44,580 bases of DNA from Desulfocapsa sp. (GTDB taxonomy: Bacteria > Desulfobacterota > Desulfobulbia > Desulfobulbales > CG2-30-60-27), in the NCBI GenBank assembly GCA_020717925.1, contig DYDL01000002.1:1-44580 (forward strand). The letters are read 5' to 3'. The translations under genes and the position numbers were made by a program. How positions within the stretch are numbered: the stretch's first letter is position 1; each line of letters starts with the position of its first letter. Shown in pieces: positions 4,437 to 41,749 of the stretch. Below the pieces are notes generated by a model. It saw only the letters and a program-made list of their open reading frames with translations, had not been told where the DNA came from and ran no database searches.

Positions 4437-6221
<1,785 letters not shown>

Positions 6222-7722: not shown

Positions 7723-9816
7723 TCATCGCCTCACGGCCATGAGCACCACCGCGCCCATGGCCGCCACCTCTACGCTGTCCGAGACCATGGGCACGCCCTG
7801 CCCGGGGGCAGCGATGTCGCCGGGCGACGGGGCCGCCGTATCGATCACCCGCAGCCACTGGCAGCCCTTCCGCGGTGCTGGCAGCTCAAAGCTCCGGGGC
7901 TGACGGTGGCCGTTCAGCATAACAAAGAAATCACCATCCGCCGCGCCCGGCACGGCCCGGCCGTCCAGTAGAAAGGCCAGGGTCTTGCACTCCGGCGACC
8001 AATCCTGCTGGCCCCGTTTCGTGGACTGCCAATGGATCTCACCGCCCCCCTCACTCTCGCCCGACGGAAAAAAGGTGGTGCGCCGGAACACGGCATGGCC
8101 CTTGCGCATGGCGATGAGCAGCCGGAAGAAACGGAGCAGCCCCTTGTTCTTCCTGGCCAGACTCCAATCGACCCATCCCAGTTCATTGTCCTGGCAGTAA
8201 GCGTTGTTGTTGCCCTGCTGGGTGCGGCCGAACTCGTCGCCGGCCAGCAGCATGGGCACCCCCTGGGAAAGGAAGAGAATGACCGCGAAGGTCCGCACCC
8301 GGCGGGCGCGCAGAGCCTGAATGCGGCGGTTGCCGGTGTCGCCCTCAATACCGCTGTTCCAACTGATGTTGTGGTCGCAACCGTCGCGGTTGTCCTCGCC
8401 GTTGGCCAGGTTGTGCTTGATGTTGTAACTCACCAGGTCGCTCAAGGTGAAGCCGTCGTGACTGGTGACGAAGTTGATGGAGTTCAGCGGGCTCAGGGTA
8501 CTGCGCTGATAGAGGTCTGAACTGCCGGCAATGCGGGTGGCCAGGCGACGCACGGCGTCCTCCTGGCCGCAGAGAAAGGCCCGCACGTCGTCGCGGAAGT
8601 GACCGTTCCACTCGCCCCAACGGTGGTTGTCGGAGAAGCGTCCCACCTGGTACAGTCCGCCGGCGTCCCATGCCTCGGCAATAATCTTGGTGCGGGACAG
8701 CACCGGATCCTCGGCGATCTGGTCCACCATGGGCGGGTCGGCCAGGATCCTGCCCGTGGCGTCGCGGCCCATGACCGAGGCCAGGTCGAAGCGGAAGCCG
8801 TCGACGTGCATCTCGGTAACCCAGTAGCGCAGACAGTCCACGATAAGCTGCCGCACCACCGTATGGTTGCAGTGCAGGGTGTTGCCACAGCCGGAAAAGT
8901 TGAGATAGTCGCGGTTGTGCCGGTCGAGCATGTAGTAGATGGTGTTGTCCAGGCCGCGGAAGCTTACCACCGGGCCATCGCCGCCGCCCTCGGCCGTGTG
9001 GTTGTAGACCACATCAAGGATGACCTCAATGCCCGCCCGATGCAGGGCCTTGACCATCTCCTTGAATTCCCGCACCTGGTTGCCGTGGTGGGAATCGCTG
9101 GCATAGCCCGCCTTGGGGGCGAAAAAGGCCAGGGGGCTGTAACCCCAAAGGTTGCGCAGCCGCTCGCCGGTGACCGGATTGTGTTGCAGCAATTCGTTCT
9201 CGTTGAACTCGGCCACGGGCATGAGTTCCAGGGCAGTCACCCCCAGTTCGCGCAGATAGGGGATTTTGTCGATCAGGCCGGCATAGGTGCCCGGGTGAGC
9301 CACCGCACCGCTCACGTGGTTGGTGAAACCGCGGACGTGCAGTTCGTAGATCACCGAGTCCCGCAGTGGAATGTTCAGGGGCCGGTCACCCTCCCAGTCA
9401 AAGGATGCGTCCGGTAGGAGGCAACGCCGCAGCCAGCCCCGCTCATGGCCACTACCAGGATCTGGCATCCGGCCCCACTGCTCGCCGCCGGCCAGAGCCC
9501 GGGCATAGGGATCGAGCAGCACGTGGTCAGCGGCAAACCGGTGACCGGAGCCGGCCGGGTCATAGGGCCCGGTCACCCGAAAGCCATACTGAATATCCGG
9601 CGGCAGGTCGTGCACCAGGACGTGCCAGATATCGCCGGTACGGTTGATGGCCGGGTCGAGTTTAATGACCGCGCCGGGCTTGGTGGCTGCCGACGAAAAA
9701 AACAGCAGGGCCACCCCCTCGGCATGCCTGGAGAACAGGGAAAAGTTGACGCCAACGGCCACACGGGTCGGGCCGTGGGGCAGGGGAAAGCCCGGGCTGG
9801 TAACAAAGGTCTTCAT
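7723..9816 (-). CDS. glgX: Glycogen debranching enzyme (isoamylase, GH13)
   Basis: 697 aa. Contains 'YNHTAEG', 'GFRFDLA', 'EAWD', 'FVTSHDGFTL' and 'QGVPMLLAGDEFGRTQQGNNNAY'. Confidence 0.9.
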   Translation of the reverse strand: MKTFVTSPGFPLPHGPTRVAVGVNFSLFSRHAEGVALLFFSSAATKPGAVIKLDPAINRTGDIWHVLVHDLPPDIQYGFRVTGPYDPAGSGHRFAADHVLLDPYARALAGGEQWGRMPDPGSGHERGWLRRCLLPDASFDWEGDRPLNIPLRDSVIYELHVRGFTNHVSGAVAHPGTYAGLIDKIPYLRELGVTALELMPVAEFNENELLQHNPVTGERLRNLWGYSPLAFFAPKAGYASDSHHGNQVREFKEMVKALHRAGIEVILDVVYNHTAEGGGDGPVVSFRGLDNTIYYMLDRHNRDYLNFSGCGNTLHCNHTVVRQLIVDCLRYWVTEMHVDGFRFDLASVMGRDATGRILADPPMVDQIAEDPVLSRTKIIAEAWDAGGLYQVGRFSDNHRWGEWNGHFRDDVRAFLCGQEDAVRRLATRIAGSSDLYQRSTLSPLNSINFVTSHDGFTLSDLVSYNIKHNLANGEDNRDGCDHNISWNSGIEGDTGNRRIQALRARRVRTFAVILFLSQGVPMLLAGDEFGRTQQGNNNAYCQDNELGWVDWSLARKNKGLLRFFRLLIAMRKGHAVFRRTTFFPSGESEGGGEIHWQSTKRGQQDWSPECKTLAFLLDGRAVPGAADGDFFVMLNGHRQPRSFELPAPRKGCQWLRVIDTAAPSPGDIAAPGQGVPMVSDSVEVAAMGAVVLMAVRR

Positions 9817-11691: not shown

Positions 11692-14517
11692 ATGGCCTTT
11701 ATCAACTTTCTGCGCCCCAAATGGCAGTCCAGCAGCGTAGCGGTGCGCCTTGCCGCGGTGCGGGGGCTGTCCATGGCCGACGACCGGGAAACCCTCTGCA
11801 CCGTGCTCCGTGAAGACGATCAGGCCGAGGTCAGGCTGGCTGCCCTGGAAAAGTTCAACACCATCCAGCAGCTTGAGCAATTGACCAGCCTTGACCTGCC
11901 CCCGGACACCCGCCAGGGTGTACGCAATAAAATCAACCAACTGTTGGCCGAGGCCTTGCTGCAAGTCACCGATGCCAATGGTCTGGAGGAAACCCTGCAC
12001 CGCATTGATGACCCAGGGGTGCTCATGACCGTCGCCATTGATGCCACCGCTCCCTCGGTACGGCTGGCGGCCATCCAGGGGATCGATGACCAGGAATTGC
12101 TCTGCGCCATCCTGGAGCAGAACTGCGGCAAACTGCCGGCCCGGGCTGCCTTGGATAAGATCAGCGACGAGACCCTGCTCGCACGGGCTGGTACGCATGC
12201 CTCCAGCCGGACTATCCGCCGGCTGGCCGCCGAAAAGCTGGAGGCCCAACGCACGGCCCTGCTACCGCCTAGCGCCGTGCCGATGGAGCAGGAGGAGGTT
12301 ATGGACCCGACCGCAGCCATAGCGGCCCGCCGGGCGGAGCAGGAGCAGCGCGACCGGGATGAGGCAGCCGCCCAAGCGTACGCCACCGGCCAGACCACCA
12401 TCTGCGCGACCATTGAGGGGCTCGTCGGCTCTATGGCTGCGGACGCCGCTGATCATTTCCAGGCAGCAATGGAGCAATGGCATCAGATGCTCGCCAGCGC
12501 TTCCGCCCCCGTGCCGGAAGCACTGGCCAACCGCTTTGCCGCCGCCTGCCACGGCTTTAAGGAGGCGGCCGCGGCTTTTGGCCGGGAACAAGAAACCCTG
12601 GCCCGCCTGGAGGTGAGCGGCCGGGAAACAGCCGAGCTGCTCTCCTCCGGCCAGCTCGTTGCCGCCGATACGCAACTGGCCCTGGCCGAGAAACGCCTGG
12701 ACGCAGCCACCTTCACCCGCCTCGCGCCGGACGCCACCCGGGCGCGGCTGCAAGCTCTGCGTCAGCAACTGCGAGAGCTGCAGGCAACAGAGGCTGCAAC
12801 CGCGCGCCGCCAGCTTGATGAAAACATCGAGCACCGGCGCGCCATCTGCCAGCAAATCGAGGCCCTGCTTGAGGCTGAAAAGCGCACCTTGGCCGAAAAA
12901 CAAGTGAAGGATCTGCGCGCCGCCTGGGCGGCCCTGCCCGCCTTGGCACCCGGGAGCGCCGCCCCGGAGACAACGCGTTACGAGGCCGCCCTGGCCGCCT
13001 TTCACGAGCGCCAGGAAAAATTCCACCGCGAGCAGGAGTGGCAGCGCTGGGCCAACAAAACCCGGCAAGAGGAACTCTGCGCCGCGGCCGACGCCCTTGA
13101 CCAGGAGAGAGATCTTGCACGGGTGGCAACCGTTATCAAGGATCTCCAGGCCGAGTGGAAAAAGCTCGGCCCGGTCCCCCGGGAGGCGGCGCAGCCCCTC
13201 TGGGAGCATTTTCGTGGCGCCTGTGACCGTAATTTTATCCGCTGCACCCCCTATTTCGAGGCCCAGGATCAACTTCGCGTCGCCAGCCTGGAGCGCAAGG
13301 AGGCCATCTGTCAGGAGGCCGCGGCCCTGGCCGACTCCTTGGCATGGCGCAAGGGTGCCGACCAGCTCAAGGCCCTGCAGGGTGAGTGGAAGGGGTTGCC
13401 CTTCACCACCCGCAAAGAGGAAGATCCCCTCTACACGCGCTTCCGCGCCGCTTGCGACACCTTCTTTGCCCGCCGCCAGGCCCATTACCGCGAACTGGAG
13501 CAGGAACAGCGGGCCAATTGCGAGCAGAAAATCAAACTTTGCGAGGCAGCCGAGGCCCTGGCGGATGCACCGGTCTGGCAGCACAGCAAAAACCTCCGCG
13601 AACTGCAGGAACTCTGGAAAGGCATCGGCCACGCACCCCGTGAACAGGATCAGCAGCTCTGGGAACGCTTCCGGGGTGCCTGCGACCGATTCTTCGCCTG
13701 GATCGACGCCCAGCGTCAAGAAAATCTGGCCGCCAAGGAACGGCTTTGCCAGGAGGTGGCGGCGCTGACGGCCACGGCTTCCGCCAGCGCCGATCTGGAC
13801 AAGGTGGCGGCCCGGTTGCACGAAATGCAGAAAGAGTGGAAGGAGTTGGGCCCGGTGCCCAACGAGGTGCGGGAAGAAATCTGGGCGCGCTTTCACCAGC
13901 CCTGCGAGGCCTTTTTTCTGGACCGCCAACAGCAGCACGCCCAACAGGACCAGGAGCGCCAGGCCAACCTGGAGCAGAAGGAGGCCATCCTGCGCCAGGC
14001 CGAGGAGCTGGTCCAGGGCGACGCCAAGGAGGGTGCGGATCGGTTGCGGGAGTTGCAGCGTAAGTGGCGGGCCAACGGCCCGGCCCCCCGCCAGGCGGAG
14101 CAGGCCTTGAATCGCTCTTTCCAGGCCCTGTGCGATGGCTTCTTCAAAGACCGTCATCACCATTATGAACAGTCCAAAGCCGAGCGGTTCGCCAATCTCA
14201 AGCAGAAGGAGGCCCTCCTGCTGCAGCTCGAAAATCTGGTAGGCGTGGCCCCCGCGGTCGCGTCTTTGCCGCGGGCAGACCCGGCCCTCTCCCTGGCCGA
14301 ACGTTTCCGGCTGGCGCGCGAGGCCAACTTCGTGCTGGCCGGCAAGCGTCACGACCGCACGTGGCAGAAGGAAGAGGTTGCCCGCTTGCAGCAGGAATGG
14401 AAAAAGATCGGCCCAGTGCCGCGCGAGCATGACAAGCCCCTCTGGGACCGCTACAAGCAGGCTCTGGACGCCTTTCACCAGGCCAGTGGGAGCAAAAAAC
14501 CAGGCAACGGGGCATAG
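11692..14517 (+). CDS. DUF349 repeat protein (941 aa)
   Basis: At least six repeats of the DUF349 signature, for example 'EWKKLGPVPREAAQPLWEHFRGACDRNF', 'LWKGIGHAPREQDQQLWERFRGACDRFF' and 'EWKKIGPVPREHDKPLWDRYKQALDAFH'. Confidence 0.85.
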   Translation: MAFINFLRPKWQSSSVAVRLAAVRGLSMADDRETLCTVLREDDQAEVRLAALEKFNTIQQLEQLTSLDLPPDTRQGVRNKINQLLAEALLQVTDANGLEETLHRIDDPGVLMTVAIDATAPSVRLAAIQGIDDQELLCAILEQNCGKLPARAALDKISDETLLARAGTHASSRTIRRLAAEKLEAQRTALLPPSAVPMEQEEVMDPTAAIAARRAEQEQRDRDEAAAQAYATGQTTICATIEGLVGSMAADAADHFQAAMEQWHQMLASASAPVPEALANRFAAACHGFKEAAAAFGREQETLARLEVSGRETAELLSSGQLVAADTQLALAEKRLDAATFTRLAPDATRARLQALRQQLRELQATEAATARRQLDENIEHRRAICQQIEALLEAEKRTLAEKQVKDLRAAWAALPALAPGSAAPETTRYEAALAAFHERQEKFHREQEWQRWANKTRQEELCAAADALDQERDLARVATVIKDLQAEWKKLGPVPREAAQPLWEHFRGACDRNFIRCTPYFEAQDQLRVASLERKEAICQEAAALADSLAWRKGADQLKALQGEWKGLPFTTRKEEDPLYTRFRAACDTFFARRQAHYRELEQEQRANCEQKIKLCEAAEALADAPVWQHSKNLRELQELWKGIGHAPREQDQQLWERFRGACDRFFAWIDAQRQENLAAKERLCQEVAALTATASASADLDKVAARLHEMQKEWKELGPVPNEVREEIWARFHQPCEAFFLDRQQQHAQQDQERQANLEQKEAILRQAEELVQGDAKEGADRLRELQRKWRANGPAPRQAEQALNRSFQALCDGFFKDRHHHYEQSKAERFANLKQKEALLLQLENLVGVAPAVASLPRADPALSLAERFRLAREANFVLAGKRHDRTWQKEEVARLQQEWKKIGPVPREHDKPLWDRYKQALDAFHQASGSKKPGNGA

Positions 14518-14519
14518 CG

Positions 14520-14741
14520 ATGACCGACCACGGCCAGGAGCCCATCTGTTACTGCTTCGGCTTCACGGCCGAGGATATCCGGTGCGACTTGGCGGAACAC
14601 GGCCGCTCGCGCATCCTGGAAAAAATATGCACGGAGAAACGCCAGGGCCACTGCCAGTGCGCCAGCAAGAACCCCTCGGGCCGCTGATGCCTTACCGCGG
14701 TCCGCCGGGTGGTGGACGAGGCGCGACGACGAACGAGTTGA
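14520..14741 (+). CDS. Small Cys-rich metal-binding-type protein, candidate selenoprotein (in-frame UGA at 14685-14687)
   Basis: The ATG lies 2 nt (14518-14519) after the DUF349 stop codon (TAG 14515-14517). Translation: MTDHGQEPICYCFGFTAEDIRCDLAEHGRSRILEKICTEKRQGHCQCASKNPSGR-U-CLTAVRRVVDEARRRTS*. A SECIS-like hairpin follows the UGA. If the UGA is a true stop, the product is 55 aa (14520-14687). Confidence 0.55.
14696..14725 (+). promoter_or_regulatory. SECIS-like hairpin downstream of UGA 14685
   Basis: The stem gtccgcc/ggtggac (14700-14706 with 14711-14717, one G-U pair) closes a GGGU loop at 14707-14710. A lower cgcg/cgcg stem sits at 14696-14699 and 14722-14725. The loop starts 22 nt after the U of UGA, the same spacing as in selD. 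Confidence 0.5.
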
Positions 14742-15996: not shown

Positions 15997-16089
15997 CCTC
16001 CTCCATCAGTTGACCATTTGGGGCAATTCGCGTTGCCCCGCCAATCGGTATTCCCTTTTGCGCATATCATGCGCCAACGGAGGTTTTCC

Positions 16090-17436
16090 ATGCGGAGATC
16101 CGTTTTCCTGACGATCCTGTATCTCGCCGTCGTTACACCTTTTTTTCAGGCCCATGCCGCCGACAATATAGCGGCGCGGCTCAACACCCTGGAGACCGAA
16201 CTCGGCCGCCAGAGCGAAATCATCCGACAACAGCAGCAGACCATTAACTCGTTGCAACAAGAACTGACCGAGATGAAGACCCCGGAAGTCCAGCCGGCTC
16301 GGCAAAGTGCTCCGCCGCTGAACGCGGGAATAAGCGGCCTTTTCGGCGCCAGCGCGCTTACCAACCCGAATATCTCCCTGGTACTCGACACCTTTGCCTA
16401 CACCTCGGACCTTACGACCGATGAGCTCGAAAACCGGGGCATCCCGGGATACACGACCAGCGGCCTGGAGCAGCGTAACGGCTTCAACCTGAGGGCGGCG
16501 GAACTTTTTCTTTTTGCCCCGGTCGACCCCTATTTCAACCTCTACGCCGCCCTGCCCGTCACCGAAGAGGGAGTCGAGCTGGAAGAGGTCTATGCCGTAA
16601 CCACCGCCCTGGCCGAGGGGTGGCAGGTCAAAGGCGGTAAGTTCAAGAGCAATTTCAGCCGGCTGGATGCCCAACACCCCCACGCCTGGGATTTTTACGA
16701 TATCGCCCTGCCGTACCGGGCCTTGCTGGGAGACGAGGGGCTGGGGGGCGAAAAAGGGGTGCAGCTCACCTGGCTCCCCGCCTGGCCCATCTACACCCAG
16801 TTCGGCGCCGAGGTGTTCCAGGGAGAGAATGACCTCCTGTTCGGCGCGGATGCCGGTTCCGGCCCCCACGCCTGCTCGCTTTTCGTCAAGAGCTCGGTCG
16901 ATACCACGGACAACTCCACCCTCTATTTCGGCCCTTCGGTGTTGTTCGGCAAGACGCGCAACAGCACCGTCGTCGCTGGCGCCGAGTTTGATGGCGACAG
17001 CGCCCTCTACGGGCTGGAGGCGGTCTGGAAGTGGAAACCGACCAACAGCCAGAAGGTGACCCTGCAGAGCGAATACCTCTACTTGGACCAGGACGGCACC
17101 CTGACCGATGCCGAGACAGCCCAAGCCGACGCCCTGTGCCGGCGCCAGGACGGCTTCTATGTCCAGGGTATCTACCAGTGGCAACGCTGGCGGTTCGGCG
17201 TCCGCTACGACATGCTGGAGCTGTTCGCCGATAGCTTCGAAAGGGCGGGCCAGGAGCAGGATATGGGCGCAACGCCCTGGCGCGCGACTGGGGCCATCGA
17301 GCACAACCTGTCCGAGTTTACCCGTATCCGGCTCCAATACAACCACGACCGCTCCAGCCGGGATGACCGCGGCAACGACGAAGCGATCCTGCAATTCCTT
17401 TACGGTATCGGCGCCCATGCCGGCCACTCATTCTAG
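16090..17436 (+). CDS. Putative outer-membrane beta-barrel protein with N-terminal coiled coil
   Basis: ATG 16090 follows GGAGG. There is a signal peptide 'MRRSVFLTILYLAVVTPFFQAHA', a coiled-coil segment 'LETELGRQSEIIRQQQQTINSLQQELTEMK', an alternating beta-strand-like body and a C-terminal '...HAGHSF'. Confidence 0.6.
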   Translation: MRRSVFLTILYLAVVTPFFQAHAADNIAARLNTLETELGRQSEIIRQQQQTINSLQQELTEMKTPEVQPARQSAPPLNAGISGLFGASALTNPNISLVLDTFAYTSDLTTDELENRGIPGYTTSGLEQRNGFNLRAAELFLFAPVDPYFNLYAALPVTEEGVELEEVYAVTTALAEGWQVKGGKFKSNFSRLDAQHPHAWDFYDIALPYRALLGDEGLGGEKGVQLTWLPAWPIYTQFGAEVFQGENDLLFGADAGSGPHACSLFVKSSVDTTDNSTLYFGPSVLFGKTRNSTVVAGAEFDGDSALYGLEAVWKWKPTNSQKVTLQSEYLYLDQDGTLTDAETAQADALCRRQDGFYVQGIYQWQRWRFGVRYDMLELFADSFERAGQEQDMGATPWRATGAIEHNLSEFTRIRLQYNHDRSSRDDRGNDEAILQFLYGIGAHAGHSF

Positions 17437-17447
17437 GAGGTTACGCC

Positions 17448-18329
17448 ATGCGAAAAATAATTCTTGGCTTGTTCCTGTTACTGTTTTTAGCCACCCCGGC
17501 CCTGGCCGAGCTCAACGTCGTCGCCACCCTGCCCTGGATCGGCAGCCTGGCCCAAACCTTAGGCGGCGACAAGATAACCGTAACCACCCTGCTGAAGCCG
17601 AACCATGACCCGCATCTGGTCGAGGCCAAACCGAGCATGATCCTCGCCGGGCGTAAGGCCGATCTCATCATGTACAACGGCCTCGATTTGGAGATCGGCT
17701 ATCTGCCGCTGATCCTCGAATCGGCCAGGAATCCCAGGATCCTCCCCGGCCAGCCCGGCAACTTCGACTGTTCGCGGTTCGTGCAGGCCATCGACAAGCC
17801 CACGGCGGTCGACCGCGGCCTGGGGGATGTCCATCCGTTGGGCAATCCCCACTACCACTTCTCCCCGTCCAATATTAAACAGGTGGCCGCGGGGATGACC
17901 GACACCCTGGCCGCGATGGACAGCGCCAATGCCGATTACTATCGCCAAAATTTCAAGGCATTTTCAACGAAGTTCGCGCAAAAAGAAAAGGAGTGGCAGA
18001 CCCTTGGCCTGCAAGGGAAGAGGTTTGTCGCCTACCATAAGCTGTTCGAGTATCTGGCGCCCGGATTCGGGCTTGCATTTGTTGGCTACATCGAGCCCAA
18101 ACCCGGCATCCCGCCTTCGGCCGCCCATGTCGAGGGGCTGATTAAAGGCATGCGGGACAACAAACCGAACGGCATTCTCACCACCAATTATTACGGCAAA
18201 AAAGAGTCTGAGTCGATCGGCGAGAAGAGCGGCGTCAAGGTCATCCTCCTGCCCGGAGACGTCGGCTCCATGGCGGGGACGGACGACTGGTTCGCCTTCA
18301 TGGATACGGTTCTGACCGCACTCAAGTAG
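17448..18329 (+). CDS. Metal ABC transporter substrate-binding protein (ZnuA/TroA family)
   Basis: Signal peptide 'MRKIILGLFLLLFLATPALA'. Also 'DPHLVEAKPS', 'GDVHPLGNPHYHFSP' and the general cluster-9 SBP layout. Confidence 0.8.
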   Translation: MRKIILGLFLLLFLATPALAELNVVATLPWIGSLAQTLGGDKITVTTLLKPNHDPHLVEAKPSMILAGRKADLIMYNGLDLEIGYLPLILESARNPRILPGQPGNFDCSRFVQAIDKPTAVDRGLGDVHPLGNPHYHFSPSNIKQVAAGMTDTLAAMDSANADYYRQNFKAFSTKFAQKEKEWQTLGLQGKRFVAYHKLFEYLAPGFGLAFVGYIEPKPGIPPSAAHVEGLIKGMRDNKPNGILTTNYYGKKESESIGEKSGVKVILLPGDVGSMAGTDDWFAFMDTVLTALK

Positions 18330-18390
18330 GCCCTGACCCCGGCAGCCCCACGACCTCGGGGCTGTCGGGGCAATTCATCAAGGAAGAATT

Positions 18391-19182
18391 ATGGAAACCC
18401 TCAACTTTCTCTTCTTTCCCTTCCTGGCGTGCCTGCTGCTGATCGCCATTCACGCCTATTTCGGTATCCACATTCTGGAACGTGGGATCATCTTCGTCGA
18501 CCTCGCCCTGGCCCAGTTCATCGGCATCGGCATCGCGCTGGCGTTCGTGCTGGGCGAGGAGAAAAGTGCTCCACTTTCCCTGTTCTTTGCCTTCCTGGGG
18601 GCCTTTATCCTCTCGCTCTCCAAGCAGGCGGCCCGCCATGTGAACATCGAGGCCTTCATCGGTGTTCTTTACATCTTCTCCTATTCGGTCAGCATCCTGA
18701 TCCTCGACCACAGCCCCCACGGCATTGAGGAGTTCAAGGCGATCATGAACGGCAATATCATCTGGGTGACGCCCAAGGAGGTTCTTTATACCTTTCTCAT
18801 CTACGCGGCAGTGGGGATCTTGCACTTCCTGTTCCGCAAACAGTTCTTTGCGCTCTCCTTTGAAAAGAGGGGCGGCTTGCCGATGGAGTTTCTCTTCTTT
18901 GCCAGCTTCGCCGTTGTGCTGGTAAAATCGGTGGCCATGGCCGGCATCCTCCAGGTCTTCTCGTTTCTCATCATCCCGGCCCTGATCGGCCGGCTATTTT
19001 TCAAGAAGCCGTTACAGATGCTCCTGACCGGCTGGCTCGCGGGGGTTCTGGTTACCATGGGGGGAATTTTCGCCTCGCTCAAGCTGGATATCCCCACCTC
19101 GTCGGCCATCGTGGCGGGGCTCGCCCTGATGTTTTTCCTTTTGCTCACGGTCAAGGCCTTAACCGGGGCAACCCGACGATGA
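18391..19182 (+). CDS. Metal ABC transporter permease (ABC-3, ZnuB/TroC-like)
   Basis: 263 aa and polytopic. 'HAYFGIHILERGIIFVDLALAQ' is typical of ABC-3 permeases. Confidence 0.8.
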   Translation: METLNFLFFPFLACLLLIAIHAYFGIHILERGIIFVDLALAQFIGIGIALAFVLGEEKSAPLSLFFAFLGAFILSLSKQAARHVNIEAFIGVLYIFSYSVSILILDHSPHGIEEFKAIMNGNIIWVTPKEVLYTFLIYAAVGILHFLFRKQFFALSFEKRGGLPMEFLFFASFAVVLVKSVAMAGILQVFSFLIIPALIGRLFFKKPLQMLLTGWLAGVLVTMGGIFASLKLDIPTSSAIVAGLALMFFLLLTVKALTGATRR

Positions 19183-38351: not shown

Positions 38352-39410
38352 ATGGAAAAAATCACCAAGAACAGGCCGGCCTTGACCAGCACTGTCGAAG
38401 CCGCCGGCTGAGCAGCCAAACTCGGTCCAGGGGTCCTGGACCATATTTTGAGCTGCCTGACGCGGATCACCGACCCGAACCTCATTGTTGGCGCCAATAC
38501 CTGCGATGACGCCGGGGTCTACCGTCTCACCGACGACATCGCCCTGATCCAGACGGTGGACTTCTTCACCCCTATCGTTGACGACCCCTATGCCTTTGGC
38601 CAGATCGTGGCGGCCAACGCCCTGTCCGATGTCTACGCCATGGGCGGCAAGCCGCTTTTGGTCATGAACCTGGTGGCCTTTCCGGTTAAGGATATGGAGC
38701 GCTCGGTGCTAACCGAGATGCTGCGCGGCGGCCAGGACAAGATTAACGAGGCGGGCGCCATCCTGGTGGGCGGCCACTCCATTGAGGACAAGGAACTCAA
38801 GTACGGCCTGTCGGTCACCGGCATCGTCCACCCGGACAAGGTGGTATTGAACGGTGGCGCCCGCGTCGGCGACCGGCTGTTGCTCACCAAGCCCATTGGC
38901 ACCGGCATCCTCGCCACCGCCTTGAAGGGCGGCCTGGTCGAGGCTGGCACCGAGGCGCTCATCACCACGGTCATGGCCACTCTGAACCGGGCTGCGGGCG
39001 AGGCCATGGCCAAGGTCACCGTGCACGGCGCCACCGACATTACCGGCTACGGCCTCATCGGCCACCTGCACGAGGTGGCGGCCGCCTCGGGCGTGGCGGT
39101 GCGGCTGGACGCAAGGGGTGTCCCCCTGCTGCCCGGCGTCGCGGACCTGGCCGCCATGGGCATTATCCCGGCCGGTGCTTACAAGAACCGAGACTTTTAC
39201 CAAAAGTGGGTGACCAGCACCCTTGTTGCCCTCGACCCCTTGGAGATGATCCTCTACGACCCCCAGACCTCCGGCGGCCTGCTGATCTCCGCTCCCCAGG
39301 CGGCCATCGACCAGATCGTCGCCCGCCTGGCCCAGTGTTCCTACCCCCTGGCCGTGGCCGTGGTGGGCGAAGTCACGGCCGGTCCCGCCGGCACCATCAC
39401 CGTGGGGTGA
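38352..39410 (+). CDS. selD: Selenide, water dikinase, Sec-containing form (UGA 38409-38411)
   Basis: The ORF track starts at 38448, but the in-frame upstream ATG at 38352 gives MEKITKNRPALTSTVEAAG-U-AAKLGPGVLDHILSCL.... This aligns with the E. coli 'GAGCGCKISPKVLETIL' active-site loop, with U at the catalytic Cys position. A SECIS hairpin follows the UGA. Confidence 0.85.
38424..38442 (+). promoter_or_regulatory. SECIS hairpin of selD
   Basis: ggtccag-GGGTC-ctggacc: a 7-bp perfect stem whose loop starts 22 nt after the U of UGA. Confidence 0.7.
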
Positions 39411-39534: not shown

Positions 39535-39670
39535 CGTTCAAATTGTAGCCGAGATCCGTTTATAAACGGATGCGGGGGACCCAAGTATCCGGGGCGTATT
39601 CCTCATCGAGGATAGGGCACTTTCAAGCCCGAGCCCGTCAGCTAACCCCGTAGGCATTTGGAAGGGCAAT
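39535..39670 (+). promoter_or_regulatory. ydaO/yuaA-type cyclic-di-AMP riboswitch
   Basis: Hallmark blocks are present: 'GCGGGGGACCCA', 'GGGGCGUAUUCC...GGAUAGGGC' and 'CCCGAGCCCGUCAGCUAACCCCGUAGGC'. A possible P1 pairs caaat (39539-43) with atttg (39655-59). It sits upstream of a KimA (YdaO)-like transporter gene. Confidence 0.8.
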
Positions 39671-39688
39671 GGTCAGAGCTGCCAACCG

Positions 39689-39720: not shown

Positions 39721-39766
39721 GCGCCATGCCCTTGAATGAAACGCACGTTCATTGCGGAGGGTCTAT

Positions 39767-41749
39767 ATGCAGCCTGATCAACCCGTGGTACGCCCTGGGG
39801 TGGTCCCCAGAATTCGCCAGCTTCTTTTCGGCGCCCCCAAGTACATCAAAGATCCGCAGTTGTTTCACAAGATGTCGCTGATCCCGGTGCTTGCCTGGGT
39901 CGGCCTGGGCGCCGACGGGCTTTCCTCGTCGGCCTATGGTCCGGAGGAGGCCTTTCGCGCCCTGGGCAGCCACACCTACCTGGCCATTTTGCTGGGCCTG
40001 GCCACGGCCCTTACCGTCTTCATCATCTCGGCCGGCTATTCCCGCATCATTGAACACTTTCCGCACGGCGGCGGCGGTTACATCGTTTCCACCCACATGC
40101 TGGGCGCCAAGGCGGGCGTGGTCTCGGGCAGCGCCCTGCTGGTCGATTACATCCTCACCATCACCATCTCGGTCGCCTCGTGCACCGATGCCCTGTTCAG
40201 CTATCTGCCCATGGCTTACCATCACCTGAAGGTGCCGATGGCCTGCCTTTTGATTTTGCTGCTCATTGTGCTGAACATCCGCGGGGTCAAGGAATCGATC
40301 GCGGTGATGGCTCCGATTTTCATGGTCTTCGTGGCCAGCCACCTCCTGCTGCTGCTGGACGGGGTCTTCACCCACACCGATCAGTTCGTGCCGCTGGCCC
40401 GGGACTTTCAAGCCGGGCTGAATCAGGATCTTTCCAGTATCGGCCTGTTCGGGATTCTCCTGATCTTTTTTCGGGCCTACTCGCTGGGCGGTGGCACCTA
40501 TACCGGGATCGAGGCGGTGTCGAACGGTATCCAGATCATGCGCGAACCCCGGGTGAAAACCGGTAAGCGCACCATGCTGTACATGGCCACCTCGCTCGCC
40601 TTTACCGCCGGGGTGCTGTTCGTCTGTTACGCCCTGCTCAAGATCGCCCCGGTGGCCGGCAAGACCTTAAACGCCGTGCTCGCCGATGCCCTGTTCGCCG
40701 ATTGGCCAATGGGACGGGCCATCGCCTTTATCACCATCTTCTCCGAGGGCGCCCTGCTCCTGGTCGCGGCCCAGGCCGGCTTCGTGGACGGACCTCGGGT
40801 CATGGCCAACATGGCGGTTGACTCCTGGATTCCGCACCGTTTCGCCGCCCTCTCCGAACGCCTCACCATGCATAACGGCATCATGCTGATGGGTGGTGCC
40901 GCTATCGCCCTGTTGCTCTATACGCACGGCTCGGTCTCGGCCCTGGTGGTCATGTACTCCATCAATGTATTTATCACCTTTTCCCTCTCCCAACTCGGCA
41001 TGACCCGCTTTTATATCAAGCGCCGCCACGAAGACCCGCAATGGAAACGACACCTGCCCATCCACCTGGTGGCCTTTGTTCTCTGCGCCGCCATCCTGGT
41101 GGTAACCACCTATGAAAAATTCCTTGAAGGCGGCTGGGTCACCTTCCTGATCACCTCGGTGGTCATCGTCTGCTGCTATATGATCCGCACCCATTACCTC
41201 AAGGTACGCCAGGCGATGATGGCCATGGACGAGTCGCGGCTCGCCATGCCGGTTCCCGGTCCGGCCAACACCGCCATGCCCCGGCCGGAAGATCCGACCG
41301 CCATCCAGTTGGTCTCGGCCTACAGCGGTTTCGGCATCTCCGCCCTGTTTTCGATTATCAAGAACTTCCCCGACACTTACAAGAACATCATCTTTGTCTC
41401 AGTGGCGGTTATTGATTCCGGCTCGTTCAAGGGGGCAAGCGAAATCGAGGCGCTGGAGAATTCGACTCGCGATGCCTTGAAGAAGTATATAAAACTGGCC
41501 CAACGGCTTGGCTTTGCCGCTGATTGTCGGTTGGTGGTGGCCACGGACGTGGTGGAGGGCGCCAGCGGACTATGCAAGGAGATCAGCCAGGAATTCCCCC
41601 GCTCCACGGTTTTTACCGGCCAGCTCACCTTTTGCCTGGAAAAATTTTATCACCGCATCATGCACAACGAGACCGCCTTTGCCATCCAGCGGCGCTTGCA
41701 GTGCGAGGAGATTACCACGGTTATTCTGCCGATCCGGCTGGCGTTGTGA
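39767..41749 (+). CDS. KimA-like APC-superfamily K+ transporter
   Basis: ATG 39767 follows GGAGGG. 'LGADGLSSSAYGPEEAF' and 'YSRIIEHFPHGGGGYIVSTHMLG' parallel B. subtilis KimA 'LSSDALSSVAYGTEQIL' and 'YRQIIYAYPQGGGAYIVSKENLG' (recalled from memory). A C-terminal cytoplasmic domain is present. Confidence 0.75.
   Translation: MQPDQPVVRPGVVPRIRQLLFGAPKYIKDPQLFHKMSLIPVLAWVGLGADGLSSSAYGPEEAFRALGSHTYLAILLGLATALTVFIISAGYSRIIEHFPHGGGGYIVSTHMLGAKAGVVSGSALLVDYILTITISVASCTDALFSYLPMAYHHLKVPMACLLILLLIVLNIRGVKESIAVMAPIFMVFVASHLLLLLDGVFTHTDQFVPLARDFQAGLNQDLSSIGLFGILLIFFRAYSLGGGTYTGIEAVSNGIQIMREPRVKTGKRTMLYMATSLAFTAGVLFVCYALLKIAPVAGKTLNAVLADALFADWPMGRAIAFITIFSEGALLLVAAQAGFVDGPRVMANMAVDSWIPHRFAALSERLTMHNGIMLMGGAAIALLLYTHGSVSALVVMYSINVFITFSLSQLGMTRFYIKRRHEDPQWKRHLPIHLVAFVLCAAILVVTTYEKFLEGGWVTFLITSVVIVCCYMIRTHYLKVRQAMMAMDESRLAMPVPGPANTAMPRPEDPTAIQLVSAYSGFGISALFSIIKNFPDTYKNIIFVSVAVIDSGSFKGASEIEALENSTRDALKKYIKLAQRLGFAADCRLVVATDVVEGASGLCKEISQEFPRSTVFTGQLTFCLEKFYHRIMHNETAFAIQRRLQCEEITTVILPIRLAL

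Follow-up and report, generated by a model that had tools for sequence, protein, structure and literature searches.

Two surveys of prokaryotic selenoproteins (PMC9312934, 2022; PMC13188914, 2026) list a predicted "(2Fe-2S)-binding protein (CopZ family) form 1, GxUC" and set it apart from a "form 2", which is the Csac_0668 CU family; for form 1 neither of them gives a function or a gene-neighborhood analysis. A primary description of form 1 could not be traced in the main text or the supplements of the GOS paper that these reviews cite. Here we describe a gene of this type in a stretch of 44,580 nucleotides from Desulfocapsa sp. (hereinafter the window; positions 1 to 44,580 of the forward strand of contig DYDL01000002.1 in assembly GCA_020717925.1). 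The gene lies at 14520..14741 (+) and comprises 73 codons (M1...R55-U56-C57...S73, from translation and the family alignment A4) plus a stop, with an in-frame UGA that we are highly confident is decoded as selenocysteine (Sec), judging from comparison of the sequences. Its G54-R55-U56-C57 segment has the form GxUC and lies within a CopZ-like domain matched by the NCBIfam model NF047645; from motif and domain, and not from an alignment, we infer that the protein corresponds to the catalogued form 1 (representative WP_245779778.1). Compared by motif and domain description, the two share the GxUC motif, a CopZ-like/BFD-like [2Fe-2S] domain and selenoprotein-rich anaerobes as hosts, with no known difference between them. 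The gene is a new, unannotated member of an already catalogued predicted selenoprotein family.

The reading frame opens at an ATG (14520..14522, +) two nucleotides past the TAG (14515..14517) of an upstream DUF349 gene, and the N-termini of the relatives likewise begin 3–8 residues before the ICYC motif. From this ATG, 55 sense codons (MTDHGQEPICYCFGFTAEDIRCDLAEHGRSRILEKICTEKRQGHCQCASKNPSGR) ending in NPSGR lead to an in-frame TGA at 14685..14687 (+), read here as Sec (U56). It is followed directly by TGC (14688..14690), by 16 further sense codons (LTAVRRVVDEARRRTS) and by the true stop codon of the gene, a TGA at 14739..14741 (+). The start, the TGA after NPSGR, the resulting adjacent U56 and C57 and the predicted product of 73 residues are all as stated in the original prediction, which had been made from the letters of the window alone; its count of 18 sense codons after the UGA is corrected to 17 residues, namely the invariant C57 and the 16 that follow it (CLTAVRRVVDEARRRTS; coding extension at 14688..14738, +). 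The gene callers behind the public assemblies containing this contig report only the first 55 codons, and a RefSeq homolog from Desulfopila sp. IMCC35006 (WP_136815760.1) is entered as a "BFD-like (2Fe-2S) protein" of 51 residues. In the window, TGA serves as an ordinary stop more often than any other codon, terminating 14 of the 24 long open reading frames (ORFs); this rules out a window-wide reassignment of the codon, and any recoding must therefore be local. That the organism decodes Sec is indicated by selD (38352..39410, +; ATG at 38352), which is itself a selenoprotein with a TGA at 38409..38411, in the context AAG-U-AAK, and a Sec insertion sequence (SECIS) hairpin at 38424..38442, in line with what had been claimed for it.

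A scan of 185,579 species genomes yielded 48 loci, 44 of which have TGA-TGY in the corresponding column. The remaining four comprise two apparently frameshifted loci (L045 and L047), a disrupted one (L050) and a long form with CC (L049). Together with two additional loci (L001 and L002) and the window, the 44 make up a set of 47 sequences, with TGA in 46 of 46 aligned relatives. Most carriers belong to the Desulfobacterota or Nitrospirota, with single metagenome-assembled genomes (MAGs) from the Myxococcales, Fibrobacterota and Chloroflexota, and the cultured ones include Nitratidesulfovibrio oxamicus, N. liaohensis, Desulfopila sp. IMCC35006 and Desulfovibrio sp. DV. Several genomes, among them those of both cultured Nitratidesulfovibrio species, carry two paralogous copies; the pairs are L010/L017 (both on contig CAVYEB010000002.1), L016/L020, L021/L024 and L028/L035.

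The frame beyond the TGA is conserved at the level of the protein. A word-indexed protein search recovered three relatives, all ending at the same position, and the DNA of each of these truncated entries continues as TGA-TGY followed by an open and similar frame. Across the TGA-containing relatives the downstream peptide takes the form C-L-x-D-V-R-(R/Q)-V-(V/A)-D. The codon for Cys57 is TGC in 32 sequences and TGT in 14, the Asp codon is either GAT or GAC, and Leu58 is written with five synonymous codons (six codons overall at this position, including three sequences without Leu); judged by codon usage, this is how coding sequence typically varies. When 1.84 billion representatives were searched exhaustively with HMMER, 814 clusters passed E ≤ 0.001. 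Of the 150 top-ranking ones, 125 stop at about the U position and five have W there (P0012, P0063, P0084, P0093 and P0114), consistent with a gene caller that applied genetic code 4 and translated TGA as Trp. In two others (P0046 and P0056) the residue is R, perhaps through a change of TGA to CGA or AGA or through an error, and CC is found in a few. Cys homologs that extend past the U position, the presence of which had been put forward as a check on the selenoprotein reading, were found: Cys stands at the Sec position in the short forms P0007, P0130, P0139 and P0153, in the long forms P0155 and L049, and in the A. fulgidus CopZ N-terminal domain of PDB 2HU9. The window protein aligns with P0007 without gaps over 65 residues at 58% identity, with U opposite C, and is 57% identical to the long CC form P0155.

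In bSECISearch-type criteria, the loop of a bacterial SECIS lies 16–37 nucleotides from the UGA, above a stem of at least 4 base pairs and with a G in the first two loop positions. The candidate core hairpin (gtccgcc/gggt/ggtggac; 14700..14717, +) falls within these values for distance, stem and loop. Its 7-base-pair stem (14700–14706 with 14711–14717) begins 12 nucleotides past the TGA and carries a GGGU loop (14707–14710) located 22 nucleotides from the U, a distance that recurs in the selD hairpin of the same window (ggtccag/gggtc/ctggacc). Both the stem-loop and the shared offset had been pointed out originally. A lower stem of cgcg/cgcg had been proposed as well; it is absent from the minimum-free-energy (MFE) fold and unconserved in relatives. 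That fold instead pairs 14689–14693 with 14718–14722 as a possible lower helix of an extended SECIS (14689..14722, +), less well supported than the core, the counterpart of which is 78% paired across relatives. Searches of Rfam at gathering and permissive thresholds returned no SECIS family for the candidate hairpin; these are uninformative here because the bona fide SECIS of selD also goes undetected.

The hairpin is conserved together with its position. In the 46-sequence alignment A2, a stem of six to seven pairs invariably starts 12 nucleotides after the TGA, 91% of its cells are paired, and at four of its pairs both partners have changed; over the two helices tested together, pairing is 86% as against 32–51% when the partner columns are slid. 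L002 and L003 display G-C to A-U and C-G to U-A swaps in the stem, and L032 retains pairing (GUUUACC/GGUAAA) under an altered peptide (VYQVVK). Because the stem overlies conserved codons, synonymous sites provide the cleanest signal of the SECIS itself. Thus, Arg62, which lies in the stem, is encoded by CGC in all 44 sequences with Arg there, as against the use of all six Arg codons for Arg55 just before the TGA; likewise, Val61 in the stem is encoded only by GTC or GTT and Val64 in the loop by all four Val codons. Loop positions G34 and T35 are also conserved in relatives, in keeping with the G/U residues that determine how SelB binds the fdhF SECIS of E. coli. No such hairpin is present in L049, the distant Cys form of the long type. 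In the closest Cys form, P0007 (L054:512-721, motif GH-CC), TGT occupies the Sec position and the hairpin is slightly weakened (gtccgtc/aggt/ggtggac), which suggests a recent Sec-to-Cys change that left a relic SECIS.

The original prediction had named three outcomes that would speak against it, and none of them was found: the 47 sequences continue past the U position with the conserved C-L-x-D-V-R extension in place of uniformly ending there, Cys-containing homologs exist, and the hairpin recurs at an unchanged offset, its stem covarying and its synonymous sites constrained. The selenoprotein reading is supported accordingly.

The window protein matches NF047645 (CopZ_Nterm_CC, "putative iron-sulfur cluster-binding metallochaperone") with an E-value of 6e-14 over positions 83–137 of the 138-position profile. 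This model and NF045877 (CopZ_Nterm_CU, "Csac_0668 family 2Fe-2S cluster-binding (seleno)protein") are both matched by all 41 aligned members tested, with a best E-value for NF047645 of 4e-16, and 27 of the 41 also match NifU_proper. The earlier tentative assignment to the CopZ N-terminal or Fe-S metallochaperone type is therefore right as to family, given that 41 of 41 members match NF047645, and needs narrowing in that only the C-terminal, cluster-binding half of the CopZ-NT-like proteins is represented. PDB 2HU9 aligns over the layout CYC...C...NPSGRCC, and the Cys that faces U is the first of the terminal pair. The A. fulgidus CopZ-NT subdomain reportedly carries a [2Fe-2S] cluster (work ascribed to Sazinsky and colleagues, 2007). 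In the alignment A4, no variation is seen at C10, Y11, C12, F13, G14, D23, S30, I36, C45, U56 and C57, and hardly any at C47. In a Nitrospirota locus (L036:5001-5210) a Ser replaces C47 (CNSKS); unless this is an error of sequencing, it hints that the cluster does not depend on C47 as a ligand.

For the fold, an AlphaFold structure was modeled on the Cys homolog P0007 in place of the window protein. The model (predicted local distance difference test score, pLDDT, 96.1) consists of a short strand and four helices, the last of which is formed by residues 54–68, i.e., the part that is encoded after the UGA in the Sec-containing genes. A Foldseek search of the PDB with this model returned Pseudomonas aeruginosa Bfd, the bacterioferritin-associated [2Fe-2S] ferredoxin, as all four best matches (template-modeling, TM, scores of 0.57–0.71). 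From sequence and model together, the protein would amount to the cluster-binding half of a CopZ-NT-like protein in short, free-standing form, probably with a Bfd-like fold.

Set against its described relatives, the window protein shares with NF047645 and 2HU9 the layout CYC...C(x)C...NPSGR-CC, with Sec aligned to the first Cys of the CC pair, but it lacks their N-terminal Zn-ribbon-like half, has Sec for Cys and is not fused to a heavy-metal-associated (HMA) CopZ domain. NF045877 describes a related domain in a selenoprotein with Sec in the same dyad; there, however, Sec comes second (CU) rather than first (UC), and the profile spans 161 positions. Bfd (PDB 4E6K and 6E6R), as the best match of the P0007 model, is likewise a small, helical protein of the [2Fe-2S] type with an N-terminal CxC, but it is only 16–18% identical, has another spacing of its C-terminal ligands and lacks Sec, and the Pfam model Fer2_BFD gives no match to the window protein. 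The HMA metallochaperones NmerA, MerP and CopZ resemble the UC domain in position only, through its occurrence at the N-terminus of a MerA (L014) and in a mer operon (L002): the HMA domain NmerA occupies the N-terminal position in many MerA proteins. Their fold and motif are unrelated to those of the UC domain, and the window protein, which has no CxxC motif and hence no MxCxxC, gives no HMA match, so that the likeness is confined to position and possible role.

Clusters of ars, mer or hgc genes contain the gene at about 17 of the 46 loci. In the Nitrospirota the gene order is arsR-(arsC)-acr3-(thioredoxin-like)-gene, after which come hgcA-hgcB in some loci and ccdA, an extracytoplasmic function (ECF) sigma factor and AhpD in others. 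The hgcAB arrangement occurs in five loci (L027, L031, L037, L039 and L048), where the gene occupies about positions 5000–5220 on the same strand, between the ars cluster and hgcA-hgcB; HgcA scores 381 bits against a cut-off of 275 and HgcB 123.5 against 99. In L048 the stop of the selenoprotein gene abuts the likely start of hgcA, and in L043 hgcAB lies 4–5 kb upstream. Two deltaproteobacterial loci combine the gene with arsC, an ArsP/SaoE-like permease and acr3. With respect to mercury resistance, L002 (1641–4182) has the order merF-merA-gene with a divergent merR, and L034 has merR-gene. A Myxococcales MAG encodes an in-frame fusion of the UC domain with MerA that runs through the TGA (L014:1806-3476, +); this MerA scores 569 bits against 454 for TIGR02053, ends in CCAA and is preceded by merR. 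Linkage of ars genes with hgcAB is known (PMC7438021); our literature search found no paper mentioning this small selenoprotein gene beside hgcAB.

In the window itself the gene stands between the DUF349 gene (11692..14517, +; 941 residues, PF03993 on the called gene) and a downstream transaldolase/fructose-6-phosphate aldolase gene. The two-nucleotide gap makes it likely that the DUF349 and selenoprotein genes are co-transcribed and translationally coupled. This arrangement is common only to the close relative L001, found as a tblastn match. About 2.7 kb beyond the transaldolase is an ATP-binding cassette (ABC) transporter of the Zn/Mn type. The region 16018–19182 (+), 1.3–4.4 kb downstream of the selenoprotein gene, contains a 472-residue ORF with no NCBIfam match and then AztC/ZnuA-like and AztB-like metal ABC transporter genes. 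Farther along the window, a cyclic di-adenosine monophosphate (c-di-AMP; ydaO/yuaA) riboswitch at 39537–39671 (+; 90 bits against a gathering score of 38) precedes a 665-residue ORF (39752–41749) that has no NCBIfam match. Among the Desulfobacterota, a few loci have FeoB (three) or DtxR-type iron repressors (two) nearby.

Taking these strands together, we consider it quite probable that the gene encodes a Sec-containing, Bfd-like [2Fe-2S] protein with a soft-metal site. Sec insertion is well supported, the cluster fold comes from homology and the model, and the metal role comes from the neighborhoods of relatives only. Under this scheme, the ribosome would meet the UGA at codon 56, with a hairpin 12 nucleotides downstream whose G/U apical loop would act as a bacterial SECIS and recruit SelB carrying Sec-tRNA(Sec). 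Following Sec insertion, translation would resume for 17 codons to the stop at 14739–14741, yielding the 73-residue protein. The Bfd-like helical fold would hold a [2Fe-2S] cluster via C10, C12, C45 or C47 and one of U56 and C57, leaving a spare selenol or thiol beside the cluster as a redox-active or soft-metal site. Such a site might capture, reduce or pass on thiophilic metals and metalloids such as Hg(II), As(III) and Cu, with selenium giving quicker and tighter exchange than sulfur. By analogy with the relatives, the genomic contexts suggest a role in soft-metal handling, which may not apply to the organism of the window.

Several observations weigh against this interpretation at one or another of its steps. 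With regard to Sec insertion, the hairpin alone is thermodynamically unexceptional (folding z-score of −0.10 against shuffles), and a comparable hairpin follows 32 of the 1294 TGA triplets (2.5%) in this window of 60% G+C; as a single hairpin is not exceptional, the case beyond chance rests on the comparative evidence. At two of those 32 sites, the candidate and selD, the frame is open and continues on both sides; the other 30 have no open, coding-like frame on both sides, and one of those rejected, at 7725 on the minus strand, simply terminates a long gene. The window yielded no tRNA gene, and hence no tRNA-Sec, and neither selA nor selB was found among the window proteins scanned. With regard to the domain, the score against NF047645 (52.4 bits) is below the 100-bit cut-off and the match falls short of the full profile expected of an equivalog; that against NF045877 (25.9 bits) is below its cut-off of 190, the dyad being UC and not CU; and none of the 41 members reaches an NCBIfam curated cut-off. 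A Pfam scan of both the read-through and the truncated products gave no match at E ≤ 1, including to PF04324 (Fer2_BFD) and HMA. At the level of sequence, 2HU9 matches weakly (E 0.0045), a PDB search with the family profile retrieved it only at E 0.16 amid chance matches to beta-2-microglobulin, and the Foldseek E-values for Bfd, at about 1.5, are not significant. Within the dyad, either U56 or C57 could be the cluster ligand. With regard to metals, the window itself has no arsenic or mercury genes and no conserved metal context for the gene, and a survey of neighbors in about 29 Desulfobacterota loci revealed no conserved context, metal or other. The metal contexts are concentrated in one Nitrospirota clade plus a few other loci, and the neighborhood counts are not phylogenetically independent. 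Across the family, Sec, cluster and metal binding all have the status of predictions from sequence.

The simplest alternative would have the TGA as an ordinary stop and the 55-residue peptide as the whole product, with the hairpin stabilizing or attenuating the transcript. Every gene caller indeed gives 55 residues, the RefSeq homolog is annotated at 51, and the hairpin is statistically ordinary by itself. Yet the downstream frame is open and its amino acids are conserved with synonymous variation in 46 relatives, in Cys homologs the chain runs on past this position to form the same helix, truncation would remove the last cluster ligand along with the C-terminal helix, and no T-run follows the hairpin, making this explanation extremely improbable. 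If Sec is accepted, the protein might still do without a cluster, its CxC, CxC and UC forming a polythiolate/selenolate metal-ion site or a selenenylsulfide redox center. The six conserved Cys/Sec residues, the adjacent U-C pair, which could form a selenenylsulfide, and the lack of C47 in L036 are in keeping with this idea; homology to families that NCBI names as 2Fe-2S cluster-binding, the Bfd-like fold of the model and the [2Fe-2S] cluster reported for A. fulgidus CopZ-NT go against it, and we regard it as unlikely.

A less remote alternative retains both Sec and the cluster and sees in the protein a Bfd-like electron-transfer ferredoxin of iron or Fe-S metabolism, in which Sec would tune the potential of the cluster or ligate it. 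The bacterioferritin-associated ferredoxin provides the best structural matches, the NifU [2Fe-2S] domain model is matched by 27 of 41 members, FeoB (three) and DtxR-type repressors (two) occur near a few Desulfobacterota loci, and the window is devoid of arsenic and mercury genes. However, the iron-related neighbors are few and unconserved, iron mobilization does not readily account for the fusion to MerA or for the location of family members within mer, ars and hgc operons, and six conserved Cys/Sec residues exceed the four needed for a cluster. An electron-transfer ferredoxin is thus a possibility to be kept in mind, albeit not one that we favor over the Sec-containing [2Fe-2S] protein with a soft-metal site.

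A more specific form of the soft-metal role, which we offer speculatively and with considerable doubt, is that the U-C dyad by the [2Fe-2S] cluster captures Hg(II) and As(III) by means of its selenium and hands them on, which would make the protein a Sec-dependent functional analog of NmerA. If this were true, the protein would feed MerA where it is fused or adjacent to it and would feed or protect HgcAB and ars efflux in the Nitrospirota, and it would represent an overlooked and routinely truncated component of mercury methylation and resistance clusters.

For the window itself, the result is of modest interest: a gene of a predicted family that was already known has been correctly identified. 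The prediction of Sec in or beside a [2Fe-2S] site is of chemical interest. There is no dedicated NCBIfam model for the family, since none of the 41 members tested reaches a curated cut-off, and its genes are miscalled as fragments of 51–55 residues; consequently, the selenoproteome of such anaerobes is under-counted. Finally, the recurrence of these genes in ars, mer and hgcAB clusters, along with the fusion to MerA, provides a testable lead on the handling of mercury and arsenic by anaerobes.

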